A stretch of 26,634 bases of DNA from a virus (taxonomy: Duplodnaviria; Heunggongvirae; Uroviricota; Caudoviricetes). Location: the IMG/VR virus record IMGVR_UViG_638341087_000020, positions 1-26,634 of that record; one strand, given 5' to 3'. Of this stretch, positions 437 to 26,634 are shown one piece after another. Below the pieces are notes generated by a model. That model was given only the letters and a program-made list of their open reading frames with translations, searched no databases and was not told the DNA's origin. Within the stretch, counting starts at the first letter, position 1, and the number at the start of each line of letters is the position of its first letter. The translations under genes were made by a program, and so were the position numbers.

Positions 437-1225
437 ATGGTAAACATGGAAAACAAAAAAAGTTGCGTTTATTGTAAAAGCACAACAAACTTAACTAAAG
501 AACATATTTTCCCTTCAGCAATAATTAAAAGTTTTAATGTTGAACTTTTATCGATGACTGATAAGAGTGACTACCATTTTAAAGGCGATCCAGTTATTGG
601 GGATGTATGCGCTGAGTGTAATAATGGAATACTGTCGCAACTAGATGCTGATTTCGTAACTTGTTTTAAAAATCAGATGCTAACACCTTTAAAACCCGGA
701 AATGAAATAACATTTGAATATGAATATGATTTATTATTACGTGAACTTCTAAAGATATCATATAATTCAGCGAGGGCATCAAATGGTGGTTATAATGCCA
801 GAGCCATTTTAGAAAAATACATACCATTCATAATCACTGGCAATAAAAACAAAAATGTAGATAGTATAATTCTTTCCCTTCTAATTGTAACTTCTGCAAA
901 TATGGTTAATCTGGAAACTGGTAAACATGAAGAGCCTTTAGAACCATATCTATTAAGAAGCGCATCGATTGGTGGTTTAAACCTCAACCCTAACAATTAT
1001 ATTGTTAGGATGGTTGCATTTAATAGCTTTTGGTTTTTCTTGTTAATTCCAAAGAGGCCAGTTACATCCAAAGTGAAAAAAGAATTTTGGGATGAATTTA
1101 AAAGAAAAAATCATCTGCATGGAGTTTTGTTAAAAAGAAACAACACGTCAATAAAGATCACAAAAGATAAAACGACATATTTGCATCCTGACTTAATAGA
1201 AAAGATGTGGCGAAAAATAAAGTAG
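437..1225 (+). CDS. HNH-nuclease-domain protein (N-terminal HNH motif, about 190-aa C-terminal region of unknown function); AT-rich cargo gene
   Basis: 262-aa ORF. Translation shows C10-x2-C13, E22-H23 and C58-x2-C61-N62, the arrangement of an HNH/His-Me finger nuclease. Visibly AT-rich, Lys/Asn/Ile-rich coding unlike neighbouring phage genes. GGATGG precedes the second ATG (446), which may be the true start. Confidence 0.6.
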   Translation: MVNMENKKSCVYCKSTTNLTKEHIFPSAIIKSFNVELLSMTDKSDYHFKGDPVIGDVCAECNNGILSQLDADFVTCFKNQMLTPLKPGNEITFEYEYDLLLRELLKISYNSARASNGGYNARAILEKYIPFIITGNKNKNVDSIILSLLIVTSANMVNLETGKHEEPLEPYLLRSASIGGLNLNPNNYIVRMVAFNSFWFFLLIPKRPVTSKVKKEFWDEFKRKNHLHGVLLKRNNTSIKITKDKTTYLHPDLIEKMWRKIK

Positions 1226-1578: not shown

Positions 1579-2133
1579 TCATTTATCTCCGACCGGAAAC
1601 TTCTTATACAGTGTCGATATACCAACATCATAGATGATCGCCACCTTCTGGCGAGGAACGCCTGATGCAATTAATCGCCCGGCCTGCGCCCATTGTTCTG
1701 GTGTAAGTTTGGGACGACGTCCACCAATTCGTCCCTGTGCGCGAGCAGCTTCCAGTCCAGCTTTTGTTCGTTCAACAATCAGTTCTCGTTCCATTTCAGC
1801 CAGGGCACCCATGACATGAAAAAAGAAACGGCCCATTGGGGTACTGGTATCAATACTGTCAGTCAGGCTTCGGAAATTCACGCCACGCTGGCGCAACTCT
1901 TCTATCAGCGTAACAAGATGCCGCATACTGCGCCCTAACCTGTCCAGCTTCCAGACAACCAGAGTGTCACCTGCCGATAATGTCCTGAGCAGTTTTTTCA
2001 GTCCGGGCCTTTCGGACTTCGTACCGCTTATCTTGTCTTCAAAAATCAGTTCACATCCTACACAGTTCAACGCATTACGTTGTAGATCGGTGTTCTGGTC
2101 ATTTGTTGATACGCGTACATAGCCAATAAGCAT
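1579..2133 (-). CDS. pin: Serine-recombinase DNA invertase, Pin/Gin/Hin family
   Basis: ORF-track frame trimmed to the internal ATG at 2133 (MLIGYVRVSTNDQ...), with AGGGAG 7 nt upstream. N-terminal catalytic motif YVRVST..Q and C-terminal helix-turn-helix (GVPRQKVAIIYDVGISTLYK) are typical of this family. Lies directly beside an invertible tail-fibre segment. Confidence 0.9.
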   Translation of the reverse strand: MLIGYVRVSTNDQNTDLQRNALNCVGCELIFEDKISGTKSERPGLKKLLRTLSAGDTLVVWKLDRLGRSMRHLVTLIEELRQRGVNFRSLTDSIDTSTPMGRFFFHVMGALAEMERELIVERTKAGLEAARAQGRIGGRRPKLTPEQWAQAGRLIASGVPRQKVAIIYDVGISTLYKKFPVGDK

Positions 2134-2187
2134 GGTGGATCTCCCTGACAAAAGCAGGAATGATGCCATTTGCTCGTTATTTCTGCA

Positions 2188-2213
2188 TTTTCATAAACGT
2201 TGGTTTGGGAGAA
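2188..2213. repeat. Invertase crossover site, left (pix/gix/hix-like 26-bp site)
   Basis: TTTTCATAAACGTTGGTTTGGGAGAA; its reverse complement matches the site at 4067-4092 at 21 of 26 positions. Imperfect dyad around a central TT, with AAAC..GGTTT half-sites as in hix/gix sites. Confidence 0.75.
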
Positions 2214-2711
2214 GGTTCGGCATTACCCGTTGGCGTGCCTGTTCCGTGGCCTTCCGCCACTCCGCCAACAGGCTGGCTGAAATGCAACGGTGCCGCTTTT
2301 TCTGCTGAAGAATACCCGGAACTGGCAAAGGCTTATCCGACAAATAAATTGCCTGATTTACGTGGTGAGTTTATTCGTGGCTGGGATGACGGGCGTGGAG
2401 TGGATAGCGGTCGTACTTTATTAACGAATCAAGAGCATGCAGTAATTTCTCATAATCATGGAATACCTACAAAAGTGGGGTCAGTTACTAATATCCCGTA
2501 TGGAATAGAACAGGTTATATCTGATGAAACCATTTTTTCATCAGCAAAAACAGTTGGTGTGGATTACTGGTCTAACAGTGAGCGAGTTTTTACTTATACC
2601 ACTGGTGGAAGAAATGGTGCTGAATCAGTGAGTTCACCTGATGCCTCCTCTTTAATTAAAGAAACCAGACCACGGAACCTGGCATTTGCGTATATCGTGA
2701 GGGCTGCATAA
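2202..2711 (+). CDS. Alternative tail-fibre C-terminal (receptor-binding) cassette, silent in the present orientation; no start of its own
   Basis: The frame is open from the left crossover site and reads ..NVGLGEGSALPVGVPVPWPSATPPTGW.., in the same phase relative to GGTTTGGGAGAA as the expressed fibre. Inversion would fuse it to the constant N-terminus. The ATG at 2160 in the ORF track is probably fortuitous. Confidence 0.6.
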   Translation, partial: GLGEGSALPVGVPVPWPSATPPTGWLKCNGAAFSAEEYPELAKAYPTNKLPDLRGEFIRGWDDGRGVDSGRTLLTNQEHAVISHNHGIPTKVGSVTNIPYGIEQVISDETIFSSAKTVGVDYWSNSERVFTYTTGGRNGAESVSSPDASSLIKETRPRNLAFAYIVRAA

Positions 2712-3313
2712 TGGATTACGCTGTATTAAATAACGAATTTATCGCCACCCAAGCAGGAAATATTACGGTTTATAACTATGATGGTGAAACACGGGAATAT
2801 ATTTTCACATCAACTGAATATCTTGCTGTGGGTGTCGGCATTCCGGCATGTTCCTGTTTAGATGCTCCTGGCTCATACAAAACTGGGTATGCAATCTGCC
2901 GTTCTGCAGATTTTAACTCATGGGAATATGTGCCAGACCATCGTGGTGAAATCGTCTTTAGCACAGAAACAGGAGAATCAAAAGAAATCAAAGCTCCGGG
3001 TGATTACCCTGAAAATACAACCACTATCGCCCCTTTATCTCCATACGATAAATGGGATGGTGAGAAATGGGTAACCGATACTGAGGCACAGCATAGCGCC
3101 GCAGTAGACGCGGCAGAAGCACAGCGCCAGTCACTGATTGATGCTGCAATGGCTTCCATCAGTCTGATTCAGCTGAAATTACAGGCCGGACGGAAACTGA
3201 CGCAGGCAGAAACAACCCAGCTTAACGCTGTGCTGGATTACATTGACGCGGTGACGGCAACAGATACCAGCACCGCGCCGAATGTCATCTGGCCTGAACT
3301 GCCGGAGGCGTAG
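2711..3313 (+). CDS. Tail-fibre assembly chaperone (Tfa), alternative cassette copy
   Basis: 200-aa ORF starting in a TAATG overlap with the preceding cassette. C-terminus (..LDYIDAVTATDTSTAPNVIWPELP) carries the conserved Tfa C-terminal motif also seen in the 3285-3725 copy. Confidence 0.7.
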   Translation: MDYAVLNNEFIATQAGNITVYNYDGETREYIFTSTEYLAVGVGIPACSCLDAPGSYKTGYAICRSADFNSWEYVPDHRGEIVFSTETGESKEIKAPGDYPENTTTIAPLSPYDKWDGEKWVTDTEAQHSAAVDAAEAQRQSLIDAAMASISLIQLKLQAGRKLTQAETTQLNAVLDYIDAVTATDTSTAPNVIWPELPEA

Positions 3314-3725
3314 GCCATTCAATATCTGGAGCACTGGAGGGATCAACCAGTTCCAGTGCGTCCAGATAATCCAGCCATAAATTATATTGCGCCAGTTCCT
3401 CACCTTTCAGACGACCAATAGCTGCTTTACCTGGCCATTGCCTGTTATTCATGTGCTCATTGGCAGTATCTATGCGCCGCTGACGCTCGTATTCTGCCAT
3501 CTTTATCAGTTCTTCAGGTGCCAGTGGCGGAATATCACTCCATACGGGATAACCATCATCACCCGCAATCCTCATTTTTCCCTCCGGTGGCTTCTGAAAT
3601 GCAGAAAAAGTTTCTTCATCAACCTCCACGCCTTTTTCTGGCCATAACCCCACGGATTCATAATGTAATTTCAAAGCCAACGGATAGAAGGCGTTAGTTT
3701 TTGCATCATAAATATATTTGTTCAT
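3285..3725 (-). CDS. Tail-fibre assembly chaperone (Tfa), expressed-orientation copy
   Basis: 146-aa ORF immediately downstream of the tail-fibre gene. C-terminal motif ..LDYLDALELVDPSSAPDIEWP. Converges on and overlaps the other Tfa copy by 29 bp. Confidence 0.8.
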   Translation of the reverse strand: MNKYIYDAKTNAFYPLALKLHYESVGLWPEKGVEVDEETFSAFQKPPEGKMRIAGDDGYPVWSDIPPLAPEELIKMAEYERQRRIDTANEHMNNRQWPGKAAIGRLKGEELAQYNLWLDYLDALELVDPSSAPDIEWPTPPAVQAR

Positions 3726-3727
3726 TT

Positions 3728-4369
3728 TTATTTCCCTATTGCAATCCAGTTAGCGCCAGCACCCGTTCCGCCAGTACGAGAACTCATTAAATAAAATGCA
3801 AGTAGTCCGCCTCCTGCCGGAGTTGTCGCAAAGGCAGGGCAATCTGTCGCACCGTTAATTGCACTGTCAAAAGACGTGGCAATACGATAACCAGATGTAA
3901 AAGGAATCGGGAAGTTAACAGTTGTTGGATAGCCGATTGGCCCTGCAATACTGACGCCAAACTGTATGATTGTACCATCCGGAAATTTCATCCAGCCTGG
4001 CCCCGACGTGAAGCTAGCCATATCCGAGATCTGATTTACCCCGGTTCCAACCTCCCGTTTTGCCGCTTCTCCCAAACCAAGGTTTTCGAGAGCCGTTTTC
4101 ACCGTGCCGTCCGATTTGATATCGCCAAACGGATTTTTGCGGCTTAACAGTAGCGCCCGAAGCGCGGTAAGCAACTGGTCGTGCCGCGCCTTCTCCAGGC
4201 TGGCACCGGATGCCTCCACCACGCTGCAAAGTTCCTCCTGCAACATGTCAAAGTAGTCATCATCCAGATCGGTGGCAGGCGTGCCTGTCTGGGGGTTACC
4301 ACGGGTAAAACCGTTCTTACCCGCGCCGAACTTATCCTTTTGCGCGGTTTTCGTGTCTATACGATGCAT
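3728..4369 (-). CDS. Tail-fibre protein (constant N-terminus plus currently selected variable C-terminus)
   Basis: 213-aa ORF with GGAG 6 nt upstream of the ATG. N-terminus [22 protein letters not shown].. resembles side-tail-fibre N-termini of Mu/P2/e14-type phages. The crossover site lies at about residues 93-101. Confidence 0.8.
4067..4092. repeat. Invertase crossover site, right (pix/gix/hix-like 26-bp site) inside the tail-fibre gene
   Basis: TTCTCCCAAACCAAGGTTTTCGAGAG, inverted relative to 2188-2213. Lies in the tail-fibre frame at the conserved ...[10 protein letters not shown]... junction. Confidence 0.75.
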
Positions 4370-4372
4370 GGA

Positions 4373-4957
4373 TTACTCCGGATATTTAAAAATTACGTAG
4401 GTATGCGATGGGCAGAGTTTGTTAAGCACGCACTCGATAACGGTGTCCCCCCAGATACGCAGTGCGGAATCGCAGGGATCGCCACATGTCATCCAGGTGG
4501 TGTTGGTGGCAGCTGGCATATTGACCTGCCAGTAATACCGCCATTCCGGCGCATTCACCGCGTCAGTACAGGCCGATGAGCAGGTGAACGTGCTTTTGTC
4601 GTATCGCGTGATGGTGGCATCTGGTCTGCCCAGGGCAGCAAGCTGTGCAAGATAAAAATCCTCGTTGATGCCACCCGCCAGGTTAACCTTCGCATCCAGC
4701 CGTTGCTGACGCTGGCGAAGGGTCTGTGTCCCTGCGGGAATACATTCATCCGGCAGGCCACACAGACGCTCCCAGCGATTTATCAGCTCGGTGGTGGTGC
4801 GCGGATCAAGCTCCCGCATCAGGGCATCCGCACGCTGATGAACGCGGGTTAATGAAGGTGCCGCACCGGCAATCGCCGGATCGCTGGCTGACCATGCAGG
4901 ACCGGGCGGCAACAGTGCCGATAACAGGCGGATGTAATCATCGTTTGTCACGTCCAT
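4373..4957 (-). CDS. Baseplate/tail protein, Mu gp48-like (YmfQ-like)
   Basis: 194-aa ORF in a tightly packed baseplate cluster between the J-like gene and the tail fibre. Family assignment from remembered similarity. Confidence 0.65.
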
Positions 4958-6006
4958 GAAATCGTCCCCAGAACCGCCAGCTCATTTTTCGCAATGGAGA
5001 TATTGTCCACCGGTGCAAGCAACTGATGGCTGTATTCCCCGTTCGCACCGGAAATCGCCTCACTGATACGCGATACCTTCAGTTCTCCCTGCGGATAACC
5101 ATCACGCAGCAGGAACGAACGCAACTCCGCGGTAATGGCAGCCCGTATTTCTGGTGTGTCCGGCGTCACGCGGATATGAAAATCCACCGTATGTGCCACC
5201 GGCCTGAATACATACAAATCAGAGCCTGCCACCGGGGCCAGTGGCTCAATGTGTTGTCTTGCCGCCGTTTCCGTTGATTCTTCCGGAATGGGATTAATCA
5301 GGTCACTGCTGGCAATCATCACACCGACAGTTCCCGTTCCCATCCAGTGACGGTATGTCCATGCGCGGGTAATGCCGGACACTTCTTTAGCCCAGACGAC
5401 ATAGTCCCCGTCAGCCCCGCCCTGAGGCGTCCAGTAATACCGCTCAATGACGCGGGCGCGCCACGTTTCCAGCTCTTCAGTATCAAATCCACCTGTCAGG
5501 GTATCTGCCACGCCGGAAGACGGCAGACCATTAACCGGCGTGACCAGGATTAATGACGTACCGTCGTCAGCGTTACCGACCGCGCCTGCACTTGAGCAGG
5601 CGATCGGCACGCGCAGGACACCACCGGAGCTGGTTGCATCGGCAGTTGCCGTGTACTGAACCAGGTCATCGCGCTGAATAACACTCCCGGCAGTCACCTT
5701 CAGGCCATCGCTGACACCTTCCCAGCGCATATACCCGCTGGCAGCCGTGGCCCCCTTGCGCGGACACCGTTTCATCGCAGCATGTCGCGCCAGCCAGGAC
5801 TCATCGCACAGGTCAGGCAGCATGTTCATTGCCAGATAATCGATGTACCCGTAAACCGTATGCAGCGCCGCCGCATACACCTTTGCCCGCACGTCTTCAT
5901 CCATGCGCCGGAGCGTGTCGCTGACGTCCAGCCTGGCGAATAAATCGTTACGGAGCATACTGATATTTTCTGCCAGCGTCGGGCGCTGAAATTCACTGTC
6001 CGCCAT
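4948..6006 (-). CDS. Baseplate J-like protein (Mu gp47-like)
   Basis: 352-aa ORF. Size and position (after the gp45/gp46 homologues, before the gp48-like gene) fit baseplate J. Confidence 0.75.
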
Positions 6007-21696: not shown

Positions 21697-21837
21697 TGTA
21701 AGATTCTCTTCGGTAGTGTATATGCAATAAACAAATGACCTGTATGAGATCTCATTCTGGATAGATAATGAGTGACCATCACAAACCTAAGGTTGTAAAT
21801 GTTACTTTGAAATCAACTTAAAATTGGTGGACATCAA

Positions 21838-22233
21838 ATGAGTAAAGACAAAAATGCACCTTCTCTGCCCTCTACAGGGATTTATATTGAAAAGGGTTTT
21901 GGAAATCAGCTTTCTAACATAACATCGGTAGGATATGACGTAGGCATTCGCTTCGATGAAGCTTACAATAATAAGTTTTCTTCAGTTCAAGTTATCAGCT
22001 TAGACGCGCTAACTGTGTTAGAACAAACTAAAATTCAATTATTAAACTTGAACATTGATGAAAAATTAAAAAATGAAATTAATAACAAACTTGACGAAAT
22101 TAAAACGGCTCCATCTAAAGAGAGCGCCTCAAACTCATACATTAAATTAATGTCATCACTATCAGATCATGTCACTGTTCTTACGCCACTCTGGCCGCAT
22201 TTATGTACATTAGCTGGTAGCCTCATTGCGTAA
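21838..22233 (+). CDS. Hypothetical protein; opposite-strand AT-rich moron
   Basis: 131-aa ORF on the plus strand inside an otherwise minus-strand late operon. Visibly AT-rich with GGTGGA upstream of the ATG; no recognisable motif. Confidence 0.5.
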   Translation: MSKDKNAPSLPSTGIYIEKGFGNQLSNITSVGYDVGIRFDEAYNNKFSSVQVISLDALTVLEQTKIQLLNLNIDEKLKNEINNKLDEIKTAPSKESASNSYIKLMSSLSDHVTVLTPLWPHLCTLAGSLIA

Positions 22234-22524
22234 CATTATCGCAGGTACTCGGTGAATGCCTGCTGTAATGCCTGCCACACTCTCGCAGTGGCCGCGCTCA
22301 TGCCCTTGAGACCATGTGTCAGGGGTATCTCGTGAATCCCTCACCACTAACCGAAAGCTGACCGGCGATCAACCTGGGGCACCAGCGCGCTTCTTCCCGT
22401 TAACCCTCACCAGCGCGCTATCAGCTTTTTACCTGAAACTGGCTACCAGCAACTTTGGGTATTCGGGGCAGCGTAATTACTGCTGCATTGGCACTACTTG
22501 CCGCGGTCTTTCCGCTTTACAGCT

Positions 22525-22782: not shown

Positions 22783-23059
22783 TCGCAATAGCCACTTTGA
22801 TATCTTCCTGGGTTCTCTGTGACTCCAGTGCGATCTGCTGTTTTGCATGCTGGTTAGCCTCCAGTACTGTATTGACGATTTGCAGTGATTGCAGGATGTT
22901 ATTGGTAATGGCAGTTGCCAATTTGGCATTTTGTACAGCCTCATCAGCACGTTTCTTTTCGTACTGATATTTGCTGTAGTAGTGGTTGGCTGACCAGATG
23001 AAAGAACCAATGACAGTAACGAAGAAAGCAGAGATAACCAGCTTATAGCTCAACTTCAT
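22667..23059 (-). CDS. Rz: i-spanin (Rz-like)
   Basis: 130-aa ORF with an N-terminal transmembrane helix and coiled-coil-like remainder, immediately downstream of the endolysin gene. Confidence 0.7.
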   Translation of the reverse strand: MKLSYKLVISAFFVTVIGSFIWSANHYYSKYQYEKKRADEAVQNAKLATAITNNILQSLQIVNTVLEANQHAKQQIALESQRTQEDIKVAIANDDCASRPVPATAADRLRKYADSLRASSGGTTTGEPNR

Positions 23060-23519
23060 TTACCACCCCACCAGCCTCTTTAAACCGGGAAATCAGGTCG
23101 CCAATTTTATGTTCATACTGACCGTAACCTGCACCAGGTAAAGACGCCCAGATATTGCTGCAACGGTCGATTGCCTGACGAATATTGCCGCGATCAATCA
23201 TCGGTAAAGCGCCACGCTCTTTAATCTGCTGTAATGCCACTGAGTCCTGGCTTCTGGGAGAGAAGTCTTTCAGCCCAAGCTGCTTGCGGTAAGCATCCCA
23301 CCAACGTGAAAGAAGTTGATAACGGCCTGCAGCTGTTGATTTGAGTTTCGGGTTTAGCGTGACAAGTTTGCGAGGGTGATCGGAGTAATCAGTGAAGAGT
23401 TCGCCACCGACAATAACGTCATAACCGTGGTTACGTGTCGGTTGTCGCCCGTTATCCGTTCCTTCTGACCATGCCACCATATCCAGGAAAGCTTTACGCT
23501 GGGAATTTAGTACCTGCAT
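23043..23519 (-). CDS. R: Endolysin, lambda R-type lytic transglycosylase
   Basis: 158-aa protein that is near-identical over most of its length to phage lambda R as I remember it (..QRKAFLDM.AWSEGTDNGRQ.TRNHGYDVIVGGELFTDYSDHPRKLVTLNPKLKST.AGRYQLLSRWWDAYRKQLGLKDFSP..). Confidence 0.9.
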   Translation of the reverse strand: MQVLNSQRKAFLDMVAWSEGTDNGRQPTRNHGYDVIVGGELFTDYSDHPRKLVTLNPKLKSTAAGRYQLLSRWWDAYRKQLGLKDFSPRSQDSVALQQIKERGALPMIDRGNIRQAIDRCSNIWASLPGAGYGQYEHKIGDLISRFKEAGGVVNEVEL

Positions 23520-23522
23520 AAA

Positions 23523-23858
23523 TTACTCCTTAGAGCCACCAAACTTGTTACCGATTACTCTCATTGCAGCCCCACGAATAGCATCGACACCGATCAACCC
23601 AACGCCACCACCAATGGCAACAGAAAGCGATTTAGGCCATCCGACATACTCAAGAGCGGATGCAAAAGTCAGCGTCAGAGCGCCGCAGAGCAAAATCTCG
23701 AGCGTTTTTCGCTTCCAGCCACCACCACCGCCAAAATAGGCGATGCGCAAACCAGCCATAACGATCGACATAATCACTGCACCCAGCGGTGTGTCTCCAC
23801 GCCACCAGCTCTGAAACAACTCCAGCCAGTCCGGCCAGGTATTTGGGTTATGAGGCAT
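23523..23858 (-). CDS. Holin (three predicted transmembrane helices)
   Basis: Start set at the first ATG (23858; MPHNPNTW..); the longer ORF-track frame begins with GTG and overlaps a terminator hairpin. Three hydrophobic segments; immediately upstream of the endolysin gene. Confidence 0.6.
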   Translation of the reverse strand: MPHNPNTWPDWLELFQSWWRGDTPLGAVIMSIVMAGLRIAYFGGGGGWKRKTLEILLCGALTLTFASALEYVGWPKSLSVAIGGGVGLIGVDAIRGAAMRVIGNKFGGSKE

Positions 23859-23903
23859 TTCGTCATCTCTCACCTCGCGATATTTGCGGGTGCTGTGTTG
23901 GAA

Positions 23904-23927
23904 ATAAAAAGGCCACGCAACGTGGCC
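23904..23927 (-). terminator. Candidate intrinsic terminator just upstream of the holin gene
   Basis: On the minus strand a 7-bp stem (GGCCACG/CGTGGCC), 3-nt loop, then TTTTTAT, about 45 nt upstream of the holin ATG. Confidence 0.45.
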
Positions 23928-23934
23928 ACCAGAA

Positions 23935-24309
23935 TTATTTCCCCACCAGTTCACTTACCTCTTTCACCGTCTGATTAAACCGCTCTGACTCAAGTTCAAC
24001 ACCTAACGCCCGACGCCCCAGCGCCATTGCTGCTTTTATTGTGGAACCTGATCCCATAAAGAAATCAGCAACCAGATCACCTGGTCGACTACTGGCATTG
24101 ATTATTTGCCGGAGCATATCCGCCGGTTTCTCGCACGGATGTTTACCCGGGTAGAACTGAACGGGCTTATGCGTCCTGACATCGGTATAAGGCACGGAGA
24201 CTGATACGGAGAAATAGCGCCGGAGAGATTTAAACTCATCCAGCAATTCAGAAGATTTGCAATTCAGTGAATCATGAGATACCACCAACTGGTGGTAGGA
24301 TTGTCTCAA
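23935..24309 (-). pseudogene. 5'-truncated DNA methyltransferase remnant (beta-class N6-adenine/N4-cytosine type)
   Basis: Open frame with no ATG until residue about 64, opening right after an in-frame TAG. Carries the ..HPCEKP.. and FFMGSGST (SAM-binding F-x-G-x-G) motifs but lacks the catalytic (D/S)PPY region normally N-terminal in this class. The AT-rich insert starts where the N-terminus should be. Confidence 0.6.
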
Positions 24310-24483
24310 CTAGTGAGCTTTATACATTTAAGTGCGATGCACAGATAATAACCACGCCAATGGAATATCACACACAAAATTGATAGAACACTAACAATAA
24401 GCCATGAAATAATTCACGATTTATTTTTACAATGGATAAGTAGCAAAGTAGTGAATGTGAATAACGGCTAACTAAGATGAAAC

Positions 24484-24510
24484 AAAAAGCCCCACAATCT
24501 GTGGGGCTCC
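24484..24510 (-). terminator. Candidate intrinsic terminator downstream of the small Gns-like gene
   Basis: On the minus strand an 8-bp stem (AGCCCCAC/GTGGGGCT), 5-nt loop, then TTTTTGTTT. Confidence 0.5.
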
Positions 24511-24566
24511 TTCGCGACTTATAGTAAAATAATCGATTCTCTAGCTGAAAAAATCTTTAAAAATTA

Positions 24567-24752
24567 TCAGCAATACGCAAGTTTTTTACCGTCATCCGGT
24601 ACTAGTTTGATCACTACACCAGGATTCTTACGCTCTAACATCTGAGTTTGACTCCATGTAATACCAAAGGTTTCCATTGGAGATGCATTGCCAGCAAAGA
24701 GTTCGGCGACGACTTTAGCTGCCTCAATCTCTATCTGCTCATGATGTTTCAT
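24567..24752 (-). CDS. Small protein (61 aa), possibly GnsA/GnsB-like
   Basis: Start set at the ATG with AAGGGGA 6 nt upstream (MKHHEQIEIEAAKVVAELFAG..VVIKLVPDDGKKLAYC). Length and helix-then-strand pattern recall the Gns family from remembered sequence only. Confidence 0.45.
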   Translation of the reverse strand: MKHHEQIEIEAAKVVAELFAGNASPMETFGITWSQTQMLERKNPGVVIKLVPDDGKKLAYC

Positions 24753-24943
24753 AAAAATCCCCTTGTTCAGCACTAAGCTGTAGTTGCTTCTTTGAAGCAT
24801 AAAGGCAACAAAGTTTGTTACCTGAAGATGTATAAAGTAAAGCGTAGTACATTTTGTGTGTGCTTTGTGTGGATCCAGATTGCATCAACTAAAAGAGGTT
24901 TTCAATACTTTTGTAATGATTCTGGAGAAATTAAGAATCTAAC

Positions 24944-25486
24944 TCACACTGATTGGTTAGGTAAAACACTCCTAAGCACCATTGCGCAACCACCTCGTTC
25001 GTAATCAGCAATGTACTCAAAACCACTTTCAGTATAGTATCTTATTGCCCCATCAACTGGACTAACTAAAGCTATCGAATCAATAGATTCACCCTGAAGG
25101 TTCAGAAATCGTGCATATGCAGAGAAGCAATCCAAAACGATACCAAGCATCTGATGGTCTAGGTCTTCATGTGCATCATTACGTTTTTCCATCCAGCAAA
25201 TATGCACCGCATTTTTCGGCTTACAGTAACACCCAAATGCAAATCCAATAGGCTCCCCACGATAATAAACAACTAGTTTTATCGGGTGTTCTTCCATCAT
25301 ATCCATAAACACTCGCGACTTTAGTCCGGGATCCCACCGCAGTTTATTGTTCGCCTTGAGGAACTCCATATCTTTTAGTACCAGCTCGTCGGCATATACG
25401 AGCCCTAACGACTTATGAGGGAAGCGCCCTTTTAAATACTCTGCAACATTTTTAAATACTGCTGTTTGGAAGGCTTGAAACATCAT
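24944..25486 (-). CDS. Hypothetical protein, possibly GNAT-fold (acyl-CoA N-acyltransferase-like)
   Basis: 180-aa ORF in AT-rich DNA between the Q-like gene and the lysis cassette. C-terminal ..PVDGAIRYYTESGFEYI.. resembles the GNAT motif-B signature; the upstream Q-x-x-G-x-V segment is only a weak motif-A match. Weak RBS. Confidence 0.45.
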   Translation of the reverse strand: MMFQAFQTAVFKNVAEYLKGRFPHKSLGLVYADELVLKDMEFLKANNKLRWDPGLKSRVFMDMMEEHPIKLVVYYRGEPIGFAFGCYCKPKNAVHICWMEKRNDAHEDLDHQMLGIVLDCFSAYARFLNLQGESIDSIALVSPVDGAIRYYTESGFEYIADYERGGCAMVLRSVLPNQSV

Positions 25487-25562
25487 GTCGATCCAGACGA
25501 GACGAAAGTTTAAATTCTACCTACTCGCCGAATACCATTTCAATGCCACACATCTAAAATTC

Positions 25563-25600
25563 CGAAAAAAAACCCGCACATCAGCGGGTTTTCTACTTTT
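25563..25600. terminator. Intrinsic terminator hairpin flanked by A- and T-tracts (candidate tR'-like late terminator; potentially bidirectional)
   Basis: AAAAAAAA-ACCCGC-ACATCA-GCGGGT-TTTCTACTTTTT on the plus strand. On the minus strand the hairpin is followed by TTTTTTTT, about 100 nt downstream of the Q-like stop. Confidence 0.5.
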
Positions 25601-25637
25601 TATTAAAGCCGGACACACAATGCCCATCATTGAGAAA

Positions 25638-25666
25638 ACATTATCCATTTTTTTTGAAAAATGCAA
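25638..25666 (-). promoter_or_regulatory. Candidate late promoter (pR'-like) downstream of the Q-like gene
   Basis: Minus strand TTGCAT, 17-nt spacer, TAATGT (alternatively TGgATAAT), between the Q-like stop and the terminator hairpin. Weak match, placed mainly by position. Confidence 0.25.
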
Positions 25667-25697
25667 GCATCATGTCGCCATTTTCGTCGAAAATCAT

Positions 25698-26450
25698 TCA
25701 TCTCGTCACTTTCCTCAATTGTGTCTCAGCATACGCTTCTTCCTGCCAGCACTTTGTAACCAGTTTATCAATGACATTTGCATATCCTTTGTACCACTGA
25801 TAATCAGTCAGGTCCGGTACCAGCTTCTGGACATGATGCCGCGCCAGTGTTGTTGGTAAACGACTAAACCGTTTTCCATTGCAACGCCCACAAATCTTAT
25901 AAACAGGTGTGCCATGAAGCCGGGTCCTTTTTTCATCCAGGACAATACCTTTACCCTTACACCCTCTGCACGCTGTGCTGACTTCTCCCTTACCATGACA
26001 ATGCTGACATAGTTCCTTCACCCACTCTTCCTTGATAACAGATTCCCCGCTTCTGGAGTGCTTCACCACTTCGCGCAATACATTCTGAAATCCAGTACCA
26101 GCACAATGCTCACAGCGAGCCTTACTTGCCGCAGACCTGGAATAATCAGCAAAGGCAAAATTCACAAGGTAAGGGATGATCTGTAACCGGATTTCTTCAC
26201 TCAATTTGTTCAATGTCGGGTTATCCAGTGCCATCGCGTAATTGAGCAGACCTTCAATCGCAAACTGAGGATCCTGAACGCCAACTTTTGCCAGGAATAA
26301 GGCAAACCCAAGCGGTGCTTTCGACTGCACCATCCCCTGTGCAGCCATCACATCCGTAATCGTTAAACCACCTGAGCCTGTCGCCGGTGCGTCATCACTC
26401 AATTTTGGAGATTTTGGGGAGTAATATTTTGGTAAGGCTTCAAAGTTCAT
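25698..26450 (-). CDS. Late antiterminator Q-like protein candidate (zinc-finger protein, about 250-aa Q class)
   Basis: 250-aa ORF with GGAG 7 nt upstream. Four CxxCxGxG/R zinc-finger-like repeats (CEHCAGTG, CQHCHGKG, CRGCKGKG, CGRCNGKR). Located immediately upstream of a promoter/terminator pair and the lysis cassette, where lambdoid phages carry Q. Confidence 0.5.
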   Translation of the reverse strand: MNFEALPKYYSPKSPKLSDDAPATGSGGLTITDVMAAQGMVQSKAPLGFALFLAKVGVQDPQFAIEGLLNYAMALDNPTLNKLSEEIRLQIIPYLVNFAFADYSRSAASKARCEHCAGTGFQNVLREVVKHSRSGESVIKEEWVKELCQHCHGKGEVSTACRGCKGKGIVLDEKRTRLHGTPVYKICGRCNGKRFSRLPTTLARHHVQKLVPDLTDYQWYKGYANVIDKLVTKCWQEEAYAETQLRKVTR

Positions 26451-26463
26451 GCTCGTTCTCCAC

Positions 26464-26634
26464 TTACGCCAGTACGCCTATTGCCAGCGCACGATCGATA
26501 AAACGAAATATCAGCTCCAGCTGGGAGCCATACTTCTCTTCAAATGCCACGGTATCCGCATGCAGCTCGTCGTGATGCTTTCTGCACAAAGGCAACACAA
26601 AGAGGTCATGCGCTTTTGTACCCATTCCACCCTG
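26464..26634 (-). CDS. C-terminal fragment of a nin-region-like gene (truncated by window edge)
   Basis: Hand-translated frame open to the window edge: ..KAHDLFVLPLCRKHHDELHADTVAFEEKYGSQLELIFRFIDRALAIGVLA, ending at TAA 13 nt before the Q-like start. Confidence 0.4.
   Translation of the reverse strand, partial: QGGMGTKAHDLFVLPLCRKHHDELHADTVAFEEKYGSQLELIFRFIDRALAIGVLA

Follow-up and report, generated by a model that had tools for sequence, protein, structure and literature searches.

A mobile prophage cassette pairing a GNAT-fold protein gene with a 61-codon gene is a candidate phage-defence or toxin-antitoxin-like module

Described GNAT modules and the cassette

GNAT toxins of the TacAT/AtaRT type acetylate aminoacyl-tRNA and arrest growth, and are neutralised by their antitoxins. 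The roles can be swapped: in the YjhX(TopAI)/YjhQ pair, encoded by the KpLE2 element of E. coli, a small toxin is combined with a GNAT antitoxin, a precedent for a GNAT protein acting as neutraliser instead of toxin. Gene order can vary too, since in reverse-order toxin-antitoxin systems the effector gene comes first and an internal promoter serves the second gene. For GNAT toxin-antitoxin systems, the partner is described as a DUF1778/ribbon-helix-helix antitoxin (PMC9177977).

Here, we analysed a two-gene cassette in 26,634 nucleotides of Caudoviricetes DNA (IMG/VR record IMGVR_UViG_638341087_000020, positions 1 to 26,634; the window, numbered from its first letter). Like TacAT, AtaRT, KacAT and ItaRT, it is a two-gene module located on mobile elements, in which a GNAT-fold protein of about 175 residues, with Glu and Tyr at the usual catalytic positions, accompanies a small partner. 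It departs from these systems in that the partner is not of the DUF1778/ribbon-helix-helix type, having no Pfam match and a predicted structure of three helices and a disordered tail, and in that the partner gene lies downstream, not upstream, of the enzyme gene. Moreover, the two genes do not overlap, being separated by a leader with its own candidate promoter, and the enzyme has no GNAT Pfam match and a degenerate candidate motif A. The YjhX/YjhQ pair likewise joins a GNAT protein of about 180 residues to a small protein on a prophage-like element; its gene order, however, is the opposite, and as compared through Pfam, in which neither cassette protein matches a model, homology is unsupported. 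Finally, the cassette enzyme shares only about 10% sequence identity with RimI and NatD/Naa40, and has an additional helix at its N terminus, while its loop between beta4 and alpha3 contains inserted residues.

A replacement segment between Q and the holin gene

The original prediction placed an AT-rich insert of about 1.25 kb at 24310-25562, in the slot between the Q-like antiterminator and the lysis genes where Stx phages carry stx. We compared the window by BLASTN with the corresponding allele of a sister E. coli prophage (L039), which consists of Q, a 67-aa ORF, an intact 350-aa methylase gene and the holin gene. Homology covered 23041-24304 and 25566-26634, so the window-specific segment is 24305-25565 (1,261 bp, read on the minus strand), a slight refinement of the predicted borders. 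Its GC content is 0.393, against 0.496 and 0.465 in the flanks and 0.518 in the entire window, and just 3% of 1,261-bp windows match it in AT content. Extra DNA relative to a close relative, with atypical composition, is what is expected of a moron. The core of the cassette, at 24563-25631, and a further copy of the cassette (L024) share 81% identity.

On alignment with L039, the cassette has here taken the place of the 67-aa ORF and the 5' two-thirds of the methylase gene. The left junction cuts the latter, leaving a C-terminal remnant of 124 codons (23935-24309, minus strand) of an N6/N4 DNA methyltransferase: its PF01555 match covers profile positions 156-220 of 221, RefSeq labels it 'incomplete, missing N-terminus', and the gene is intact, at 348-360 aa, in L039 and two further loci (L010 and L003). 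The identity of this 124-aa ORF had gone unnoticed in the original prediction. Next to it, within the segment, lies a non-coding AT-rich tail of about 180 nt (24305-24483, minus strand; GC of 24305-24566, 0.336), which holds no ORF that is kept elsewhere.

The neighbours agree with the predicted placement, downstream of the late promoter and terminator region and upstream of the holin gene. Upstream lies a Q-type late antiterminator gene (25698-26450, minus strand; PF03589 Antiterm, E 1.3e-53; phrog_127), common to the window and the cassette-less L039 allele, followed at the right edge of the cassette by a tR'-like GC hairpin with T runs on both strands (25569-25592; minus strand AAAACCCGCTGATGTGCGGGTTTTTTTT). 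Downstream is a lambda-S-type holin gene (23523-23858, minus strand), for which PF05106 matches residues 35-137 of a 143-aa ORF whose start was set by eye at the Met33 codon; a second terminator-like hairpin (23911-23927, minus strand) directly precedes it. In this, the cassette resembles the Q-to-S morons of lambdoid phages (stx, tRNA and cold-shock genes), with which it shares the slot here, and HK97-type morons: its GC content is below that of the backbone, it has its own candidate promoter and terminator, and it is present or absent between near-identical prophages. As in lambdoid morons, late read-through by Q would be expected on induction. It differs from all of these in its new gene content and in occupying at least five other prophage positions.

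A GNAT-fold protein and its co-inherited partner

The larger gene of the cassette (24944-25486, minus strand; phrog_11949) encodes a sequence orphan of 180 residues; because its homologues start with MFQAF, translation probably begins at the second of its ATG codons (25483). RefSeq annotates both this ORF and the 61-aa ORF as intact hypothetical proteins. Structure prediction gave a confident model with the topology beta1-alpha1-alpha2-beta2-beta3-beta4-alpha3-beta5-alpha4-beta6-beta7 and similarity to solved GNATs, the best matches including ArsN, PaiA, SpeG and glucosamine N-acetyltransferases. By this model the protein has a GNAT fold, as a GNAT-like C-terminal signature had led the original prediction to propose, so that the signature holds at the level of fold.

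In the alignments, Glu100, at the end of beta4, and Tyr151 fall at the usual catalytic positions and are kept in the Enterobacterales clade; the most distant family members are without Tyr151. Motif B (beta5-alpha4) is found at residues 142-156, SPVDGAIRYYTESGF, with a Tyr at the usual general-acid position and the consensus SPVxGAxRYYxxSGF around Tyr151. In alignment A1, P143, Y151 and F156 are invariant and G146 and Y150 at least 90% conserved; in alignment A2, P143 and G155 are at least 90% conserved. In the case of motif A, both alignments were read by eye against the pyrophosphate-binding loop Q/R-x-x-G-x-G/A that runs from beta4 to alpha3. The candidate, Q112-M-L-G115-I-V117, agrees save at its final position and is preceded by a conserved charged insertion, EKRNDAHEDLDH. 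In distant members Gly115 is replaced by Pro or Ser and the loop is weakly conserved. With so atypical a loop, following a charged insertion and poorly conserved at a distance, use of acetyl-CoA is not assured.

At the level of sequence the protein matched nothing in Pfam or NCBIfam, and PF00583, the Pfam model for GNATs, was touched by just one of 35 family members (E 0.19). For both cassette proteins, profile searches of PDB sequences returned chance matches only (AhpC, a designed knot protein and GCN4 coiled coils). Since hhalign gave no significant match between the family profile and E. coli RimI (probability 1.8%), the mapping of the motifs relies on the secondary structure of the model and on our own reading. 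Two other assignments were considered and set aside: an acyl-ACP-dependent synthase of the LuxI (AHL) or FeeM (N-acyl amino acid) type, for which there was neither a family-model match nor preferential structural similarity, and a metal site in the NDAHEDLDH loop, where His106 and His111 are not kept across the wider family.

The smaller gene (24567-24752, minus strand; phrog_11292) encodes 61 residues and has AAGGGG 6-7 nt ahead of its ATG, in keeping with the good ribosome-binding site originally described. AlphaFold 2 predicts three short helices and a disordered tail, with Cys61 as the last residue (pLDDT 76). The protein has no family or fold match, none of 35 homologues has a Pfam match either, and it contains no recognisable DNA-binding domain for autoregulation. 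Its helical core is much better conserved than its tail, L18, P25, M26, F29 and W33 being invariant. A Cys lies within the last 10 residues in all 33 full-length partners of the set, usually as the only Cys of the protein, and in none of six short variants. Five of these six tail-less variants occur in GNAT-less Xenorhabdus contexts or match the variants found there, and DNA homology of the Xenorhabdus forms is limited to codons 1-41, that is, to the core. We did not take the short forms as proof that the core functions independently, because homology over codons 1-41 equally fits recombination scars.

All 41 loci searched for both genes contain the two together, in a constant order and with 107-238 nt between them. 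Among 5,426 complete E. coli genomes, 98 (about 2%) are carriers, many of them O157:H7 cattle isolates, and all 98 have both genes. The pair persists in Vibrio, Salinivibrio, Aeromonas and Psychrosphaera at 20-34% GNAT identity. Across at least four gamma-proteobacterial orders, the ORFs are intact and co-linear in every locus searched for both, from 100% to about 20% identity, with conserved lengths and motifs. By these genome comparisons, the two genes are inherited together as a unit throughout the gamma-proteobacteria examined. Both computational tests of the original prediction, co-occurrence elsewhere and a GNAT fold, therefore came out in its favour. These data also bear on the reading that the segment holds two unrelated hitch-hiking ORFs, or decaying leftovers of recombination in a variable region. 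The severed methylase gene and the AT-rich non-coding tail are what it would lead one to expect; however, co-linearity over so wide a range of identity and the confident fold of the larger protein leave it highly improbable, and the conservation data effectively refute it.

Searches of known systems likewise returned nothing that named either protein. PADLOC-DB v2 gave no match at E<=1 for the two window proteins, nor at E<=0.1 for their Vibrio and Aeromonas homologues, and PHROGs returned only two families of unknown function. Literature searches on the accession, the phage name, the PHROG identifiers and GNAT combined with defence or toxin-antitoxin found no characterisation of either protein, and neither is mentioned in the DefensePredictor paper and its supplements or in a 2026 domain-centric screen. 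The view that the insert carries an uncharacterised cargo pair, neither member of which belongs to a family that can be named, is thus borne out by co-occurrence, by the GNAT fold and by the lack of matches to curated families (Pfam, NCBIfam, PADLOC).

The tail Cys raises the possibility, though a doubtful one, that the small protein exists to serve the enzyme as substrate or carrier. On this reading, the GNAT protein would acylate its tail, on the Cys thiol or a nearby Lys, or would use the Cys-tailed protein as an acyl carrier, and the modified small protein would be the active agent, for example by inhibiting a factor of the host or of a rival phage through its helical core. The usually solitary Cys, which every full-length partner of the set has and the short GNAT-less variants lack, is consistent with this, as is the restriction of short-variant homology to codons 1-41, by which core and tail behave as separable parts. 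The stronger conservation of the core is as expected of a surface that binds another partner, and a separate candidate promoter would suit an abundant substrate. Against this, thiol acylation is unusual among GNAT enzymes, the Xenorhabdus short forms may be recombination scars and not functional proteins, and no fold or family match ties the core to a target.

Many GNATs acetylate small molecules, and enzymes of this kind are among the structural matches listed above. The cassette might accordingly serve lysogenic conversion, the enzyme detoxifying or modifying a metabolite, an antibiotic or a bacteriocin-type compound to the benefit of the host, with the small protein as regulator or chaperone. 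Genes for resistance or competition do adjoin some loci, namely one for a chloramphenicol-acetyltransferase-like protein, recognised by eye, and pyocin S. A resistance enzyme would, however, have no need of an obligate 61-aa partner with a conserved Cys tail, and, unlike successful resistance genes, the family occurs very rarely, with 37 clusters (50% identity) in a set of 1.84 billion representatives. We consider this explanation quite unlikely.

Transcription, prophage positions and proposed role

The cassette carries candidate transcription signals of its own. A sigma-70-like promoter, P1, is predicted for the GNAT gene at 25514-25543 (minus strand; TTGAAA-18-TAGAAT, 10/12 matches), and a promoter-like site lies 43-77 nt ahead of the GNAT start in 19 of 26 distinct upstream flanks. 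The 191-nt spacer, or leader, between the genes (24753-24943, minus strand) was studied by alignment (A5) and by scans; its length is 107-238 nt among 23 distinct versions. Within it, TTGAAA at 24905-24900 is conserved and is followed after 15 nt by TGCAAT, which together form a second candidate promoter (24905-24879), at the GNAT stop codon; further on, the hairpin at 24823-24803 has a weak T run. Candidate promoters at the GNAT stop are likewise present in Vibrio (TTGACC-16-TATAAT), Aeromonas and Photorhabdus. T-run hairpins recur in 15 of the 23 spacers, a feature of the small-gene leader that a simple 'antitoxin in excess' model leaves unexplained. Folded as RNA, the spacer was unremarkable (z = -1.8), and Rfam models applied to 24250-25750 came nowhere near gathering score, with weak terminator-like matches at the tR' hairpin only.

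A strong intrinsic terminator ends the cassette. It had been placed at 24484-24510 and was found at 24484-24512 (minus strand), with a 13-bp stem and a T run; a terminator follows the small-gene stop within about 60 nt in all 22 distinct downstream flanks. The region has seven terminator-like sites, compared with 1.7 expected from shuffles. As read from these signals, the layout is promoter, GNAT gene, second promoter with leader, partner gene and terminator; at the level of consensus, the promoter and terminator are the cassette's own, as in a moron. With such signals, and with locations that lack Q (the tail operon, the int/att edge and the P2 gpA-gpQ hotspot), the cassette resembles a moron expressed in the lysogen and additionally transcribed late by read-through, and its expression is probably not solely late or Q-dependent.

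At least six prophage positions are occupied. The commonest is the Q-to-holin slot, alongside two different Q families. Other copies lie after Rz, adjoining pyocin S; between the lambda tail genes K and I; between tRNA-Ser and integrase, at the int/att edge; and next to HicAB. Some copies are possibly in non-phage neighbourhoods. In two P2-like prophages, of Vibrio vulnificus and Salinivibrio, the pair sits in exactly the gpA-gpQ interval that holds old/tin-type cargo, once beside a putAbiC gene, although unlike cargo of that type it has no sequence relation to any PADLOC system. This interval is an anti-phage hotspot (Rousset et al. 2022, PMC9122126). Comparison of these loci shows the cassette to be a mobile unit that moves among prophage accessory slots. 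The predicted Stx-type moron slot is thus the right location in this window, but the cassette is not tied to it.

The prevalence of the Q-to-holin slot, where Q read-through guarantees late expression, fits a further reading, in which the cassette would benefit the phage itself on induction: the GNAT enzyme would acetylate a host protein or a defence component during Q-driven late transcription, with the small protein as co-factor. In Xenorhabdus, a protein with a Tad2-like (Thoeris anti-defence) domain is encoded in this slot, beside a fragment of the small gene. Nevertheless, such a late lytic or counter-defence role is unlikely, as phages usually express counter-defence genes early, the att/int edge, the P2 hotspot and the possible non-phage neighbourhoods provide no Q timing, and candidate sigma-70 promoters with insulating terminators are the design of a lysogen-expressed moron. 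Phage GNATs that modify host machinery do exist, an example being Rac of phiKMV-like phages (PMC7552054).

Among the options first raised for the pair (a GNAT-type toxin with a partner, a host- or phage-modifying acetyltransferase, or an abortive-infection module), the location evidence favours a defence or toxin-antitoxin-like role, hotspot location being circumstantial evidence of defence. We therefore tentatively propose, with a probability of roughly 40%, that the segment constitutes a self-contained prophage moron, mobile by horizontal transfer, that encodes a two-component, lysogen-expressed, toxin-antitoxin-like defence module. The cassette would be expressed in the lysogen, with additional late read-through by Q-modified polymerase on induction, and the pair would act in biological conflicts in the manner of toxin-antitoxin or abortive-infection systems. 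As the effector, the GNAT enzyme would acylate a cellular or phage target, for which translation components offer a precedent. The small protein, produced in excess from its own promoter, would be the cognate neutraliser or regulator, its disordered, basic, Cys-bearing C-terminal tail engaging the enzyme, which would be released when a phage infects or the element is lost.

A more speculative proposal, which we regard as a long shot, is a novel two-component system in which the GNAT-fold enzyme acts on or through the tail-Cys thiol of a dedicated 60-aa protein, an encoded 'mini carrier' or suicide acceptor replacing the pantetheine arm. An anti-phage response, mounted from prophage hotspots across gamma-proteobacteria, would then depend on whether that tail is charged.

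If the pair turned out to comprise no more than an ordinary acetyltransferase and a chaperone-like protein, the cassette would be a well-documented but routine moron. The association of the tail Cys with the GNAT protein, or the promoter, leader and hairpin ahead of the partner gene, could on the other hand reveal an unusual enzyme-partner mechanism. Lying in the slot that holds stx in Stx phages, the cassette would share its regulation with the lysis genes when the prophage is induced. With no model matched by either protein, the module would escape current catalogues and screens that rely on Pfam. Taken together, these data make the cassette a good candidate phage-defence or toxin-antitoxin-like module of a new kind, and if it is one, the immune repertoire of prophages would gain a GNAT-based effector whose partner is of a new type.

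A replacement in the Q-to-holin interval

The window is an E. coli lambdoid prophage, in which every gene relevant to the two-gene cassette lies on the minus strand; this region is 100% identical in chromosomes such as NZ_CP029973 and in the partial genome of phage vB_EcoM-689R6. A Q-type antiterminator (25698-26450, minus strand; PF03589, E 1.3e-53) is followed by a tR'-like GC hairpin with flanking T runs (25569-25592, from the terminator scan and the sequence) and then, all on the minus strand, by a sigma-70-like promoter found by consensus scan (TTGAAA-18-TAGAAT, 25543-25514), the 180-aa GNAT-fold ORF (25486-24944), a 191-nt spacer, the 61-aa ORF (24752-24567, with AAGGGG 6-7 nt 5' of its ATG) and a terminator with a 13-bp stem (24512-24484). 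On the same strand, about 180 nt of AT-rich non-coding DNA separate this terminator from the C-terminal 124 codons of an N6/N4 DNA methylase (24309-23935; matching the last third of the PF01555 profile only), and a lambda-S-type holin, a lysozyme and an Rz-like gene follow. In the gap separating the methylase remnant's stop codon from the start of the holin gene, a second small, terminator-like hairpin (GGCCACGTTGCGTGGCC and a T run, 23927-23911, minus strand) would act as a second insulator before the lysis genes. The candidate late promoter, sought between the Q stop codon and the tR'-like hairpin (25593-25697, minus strand), did not pass the consensus scan; TTGCAT (25666-25661) and GATAAT (25645-25640) can be picked out there by eye, with a spacer of just 15 nt.

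In a sister E. coli prophage allele (L039, strain 2017.18.02CC), the order is Q, a 67-aa phrog_331 ORF, an intact 350-aa methylase and the holin, the two middle genes occupying 3576-4982 of that locus. When the window was compared with this allele by BLASTN, 23041-24304 and 25566-26634 aligned at 93-95% identity, and nothing aligned between 24304 and 25566. Because homology stops on both sides with nothing aligning between, segment 24305-25565 is specific to the window. Its limits lie no more than 5 bases from the insert at 24310-25562 of the original prediction, and the AT-richness claimed for that insert was recovered as well, with a GC content of 0.393 in the segment versus 0.518 in the window, a value equally low in only 3% of equal-sized windows. 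The segment is a replacement, at the cost of the 67-aa ORF and of the methylase gene's 5' two-thirds. A cassette copy in another prophage (L024) shows 81% identity across 24563-25631 and none beyond; the conserved mobile core therefore begins at the tR'-like hairpin and ends with the small gene's stop codon. DNA resembling the methylase remnant was found in 1,163 of 5,426 complete E. coli genomes, versus 98 for the cassette.

Elsewhere in the window, a second AT-rich patch (21750-22250, GC 0.35), flanked by the HNH endonuclease/small terminase genes on one side and the Rz-like gene on the other, holds a 131-aa ORF (21838-22233, plus strand) on the strand opposite to all its neighbours. This ORF, with no match in PHROG or PADLOC and only a sub-threshold one in Pfam, looks like another orphan moron, an autonomous cargo unit. 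The most AT-rich part of the window is 1-1500 (GC 0.35), where a 262-aa ORF (437-1225, plus strand) gave only a sub-threshold N-terminal HNH_5 match and weak matches to PHROGs of unknown function; adjoining a DNA invertase where the tail-fibre region ends, it is possibly further cargo. The invertase gene (1579-2169, minus strand; phrog_125) adjoins a tail-fibre C-terminal segment with a tail-fibre assembly gene (2160-3313, plus strand), which a second tail-fibre set faces (3285-4369, minus strand; Caudo_TAP, Gp53-like_C). The arrangement of these genes matches that of a Gin/Cin-type invertible host-range switch.

The GNAT-fold protein and its small partner

The GNAT-like signature first noticed in the 180-aa protein was borne out as a fold. 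An AlphaFold2 model built from a 21-sequence alignment (pLDDT 86, pTM 0.84) has an N-terminal helix followed by beta1-alpha1-alpha2-beta2-beta3-beta4-alpha3-beta5-alpha4-beta6-beta7, and Foldseek matched it to 328 PDB chains at E<=1e-3, the best 50 of the 328 being GNAT enzymes without exception. Given the plateau in Foldseek scores, the GNAT fold is certain and no subfamily is pointed to. The protein, which had no match in Pfam, NCBIfam or PADLOC, is a member of phrog_11949 (function unknown), and its family is small, with 28 clusters in a collection of 5.8 billion proteins. A profile search of 1.84 billion representatives yielded 37 clusters at 50% identity, all of about 180 aa, and drew in no ordinary GNATs. 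The named members, annotated as ‘hypothetical protein’ in every case, come from Escherichia, Cronobacter, Erwinia, Proteus, Photorhabdus, Pragia, Limnobaculum, Vibrio, Salinivibrio, Aeromonas, Psychrosphaera and Alteromonas. In alignments inspected by eye, motif B (SPVxGAxRYYxxSGF) is well preserved, Glu100, which closes beta4, is conserved family-wide more strongly than any other polar residue, Tyr151 occupies the usual position of the general-acid tyrosine, and motif A, recognisable only in part (Q112-x-x-G115-x-V), has a conserved charged insertion, EKRNDAHEDLDH, in front of it. It is plausible that the protein uses an acyl-CoA. A small-molecule-modifying conversion gene could have such a fold, a reading that we consider improbable for a gene that is accompanied by the second one in every locus searched for both.

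This second gene encodes a 61-aa protein of phrog_11292 that, beyond that family, had no match in any family or fold library searched. Its own profile search gave 43 clusters from the same genera as the GNAT family, and in at least 12 cases the longest contig has an identical length for both proteins, which suggests that they are encoded on the same contigs. The conserved part spans residues 8-44 (consensus IExxAExLVAELFAxGxTPMEQFGIxWxQAEMLER), with L18, P25, M26, F29 and W33 invariant in the alignment, and the AlphaFold2 model (pLDDT 76) consists of three short helices with a disordered tail. As originally proposed, the two genes form a pair: both are present in all 41 fetched loci searched for both, in constant order and orientation, separated by spacers of 107-238 nt (23 distinct versions), and among complete E. 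coli genomes each occurs in 98 of 5,426, always in single copy and at >=99% identity. The pairing persists to the limit of detectable homology. The Vibrio vulnificus GNAT has 34% identity to the window protein and a partner reading MKNVQATRSDIKGFVEGLFSNGKSPSERFGVTWKQLSELEKQ..., and the pair is also present in Salinivibrio, Psychrosphaera and Aeromonas (about 20% identity, partner homology judged by eye); a partner was not found beside the most marginal GNAT homologue only, on an Alteromonas-like contig (E 8e-4). Set against these counts, a chance association of the two genes is very improbable.

Within the final 10 residues of its disordered tail, every one of the 33 full-length partners in the set has a cysteine, which is usually the sole cysteine of the protein and typically has a lysine or arginine just before it. 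The Psychrosphaera partner ends in KEAC, and in Salinivibrio the cysteine lies 13 residues from the end. Xenorhabdus prophages have, in the Q-to-S slot, short variants of the small protein lying 3' of genes that do not encode GNATs: a DUF7823 protein, a Tad2-like (Thoeris anti-defence) domain fused to DUF7823 (one or other of these at 3211-3882 in locus L041 and 3395-3859 in L045-L047), or a 104-aa orphan. In these four loci a 5' fragment of the small gene, codons 1-41, is followed by a different C-terminus; DNA similarity of the short variants to the cassette covers codons 1-41 only, and they have neither the tail nor the cysteine. Since the cysteine is found in 33 of 33 full-length partners and is absent from the short variants, it goes with the GNAT. 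The Xenorhabdus forms are either functional or recombination scars. This residue also bears on the main rival explanation, in which the enzyme would act on the small protein as its dedicated substrate or carrier, with the tail cysteine or lysines as acyl acceptor. We regard this as unlikely; a conversion gene, a chance association and a lytic or counter-defence role are less likely still.

Predicted transcription signals

The promoters and terminators of the cassette are consensus-level predictions. A sigma-70-like promoter is predicted 43-77 nt 5' of the GNAT start in 19 of 26 distinct upstream flanks, and an intrinsic terminator no more than about 60 nt 3' of the small gene in all 22 distinct downstream flanks, its sequence differing from flank to flank. 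A second predicted promoter is located at the GNAT stop codon, reading TTGACC-16-TATAAT in Vibrio (11/12 matches), TTGACC-17-TAGAAT in Aeromonas and TTGAAA-17-CATATT in Photorhabdus; in E. coli a conserved TTGAAA box (24905-24900) is accompanied by a poorer -10 element. Within the small-gene leader, 3' of this promoter, 15 of 23 distinct spacers contain a GC hairpin with a T run, where fewer than 0.1 per spacer would be expected (estimated from shuffle rates). The hairpins vary in sequence and keep their pairing; the one in the window lies at 24823-24803 (minus strand), and others occupy the equivalent place in L003, L004, L005, L006, L007, L009, L024, L028, L029 and L036. The hairpin had no Rfam match and could be an attenuator.

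At the level of these predicted signals, the cassette is an autonomous promoter-to-terminator unit. Lysogens would express it and, where it sits between Q and S, Q-modified polymerase would additionally transcribe it late in induction. Such late transcription would suit a late lytic or counter-defence role, which we consider doubtful for a pair that also sits in other positions.

Positions of the pair and its possible function

Between Q and the holin, the pair accompanies two unrelated Q families (PF03589 and PF06530) and several holin families, with an intact methylase 3' of it in L010, 5' in L003 and none in L024 or L026. In Pragia it follows Rz/LysC, adjoins a pyocin-S gene and precedes the terminase genes, and in Erwinia it lies between lambda tail genes K and I. 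It is also found within a block of large structural-looking genes (L030), none of which Pfam confirmed, at a prophage edge between tRNA-Ser and an integrase, next to HicAB, and, in Limnobaculum and Photorhabdus australis, in neighbourhoods without a phage-like look. In two P2-like prophages it lies between gpA/ogr and the portal gene gpQ, with putAbiC adjacent in one; the P2 gpA-gpQ interval is an anti-phage hotspot housing old and tin (Rousset et al., PMC9122126). The cassette moves between prophage accessory slots. Directly after the pair in the Pragia fontium prophage (L009, 7444-9037) stand the S-type pyocin gene and an ORF of 100 aa, which by its position alone is a candidate immunity gene.

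We tentatively favour a toxin-antitoxin-like defence or exclusion module, at a probability of roughly 0.4, because of the hotspot locations and the HicAB, AbiC-like and pyocin neighbours, because the putative effector gene comes first and an internal promoter is predicted for the second gene, and because GNAT toxins offer a structural precedent. The GNAT would act as effector, and the small protein, separately and probably more strongly expressed, would be a neutraliser or regulator acting via its cysteine tail. The cassette differs from the known GNAT/DUF1778 toxin-antitoxin systems in partner type, gene order and gene coupling, and on all three counts it falls outside that family.

The sequences are not new, since both proteins are unnamed PHROG families and RefSeq ‘hypothetical proteins’; a characterisation of either was not found in the literature searched or in PADLOC. 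Taken together, a sequence-orphan GNAT-fold enzyme and its obligate 60-aa partner form a cassette of a known general type, in which prophage cargo would combine a GNAT effector and a small partner. The candidate is clean, well delimited and testable, and its two unusual features are the tail cysteine and the promoter-leader-hairpin arrangement.
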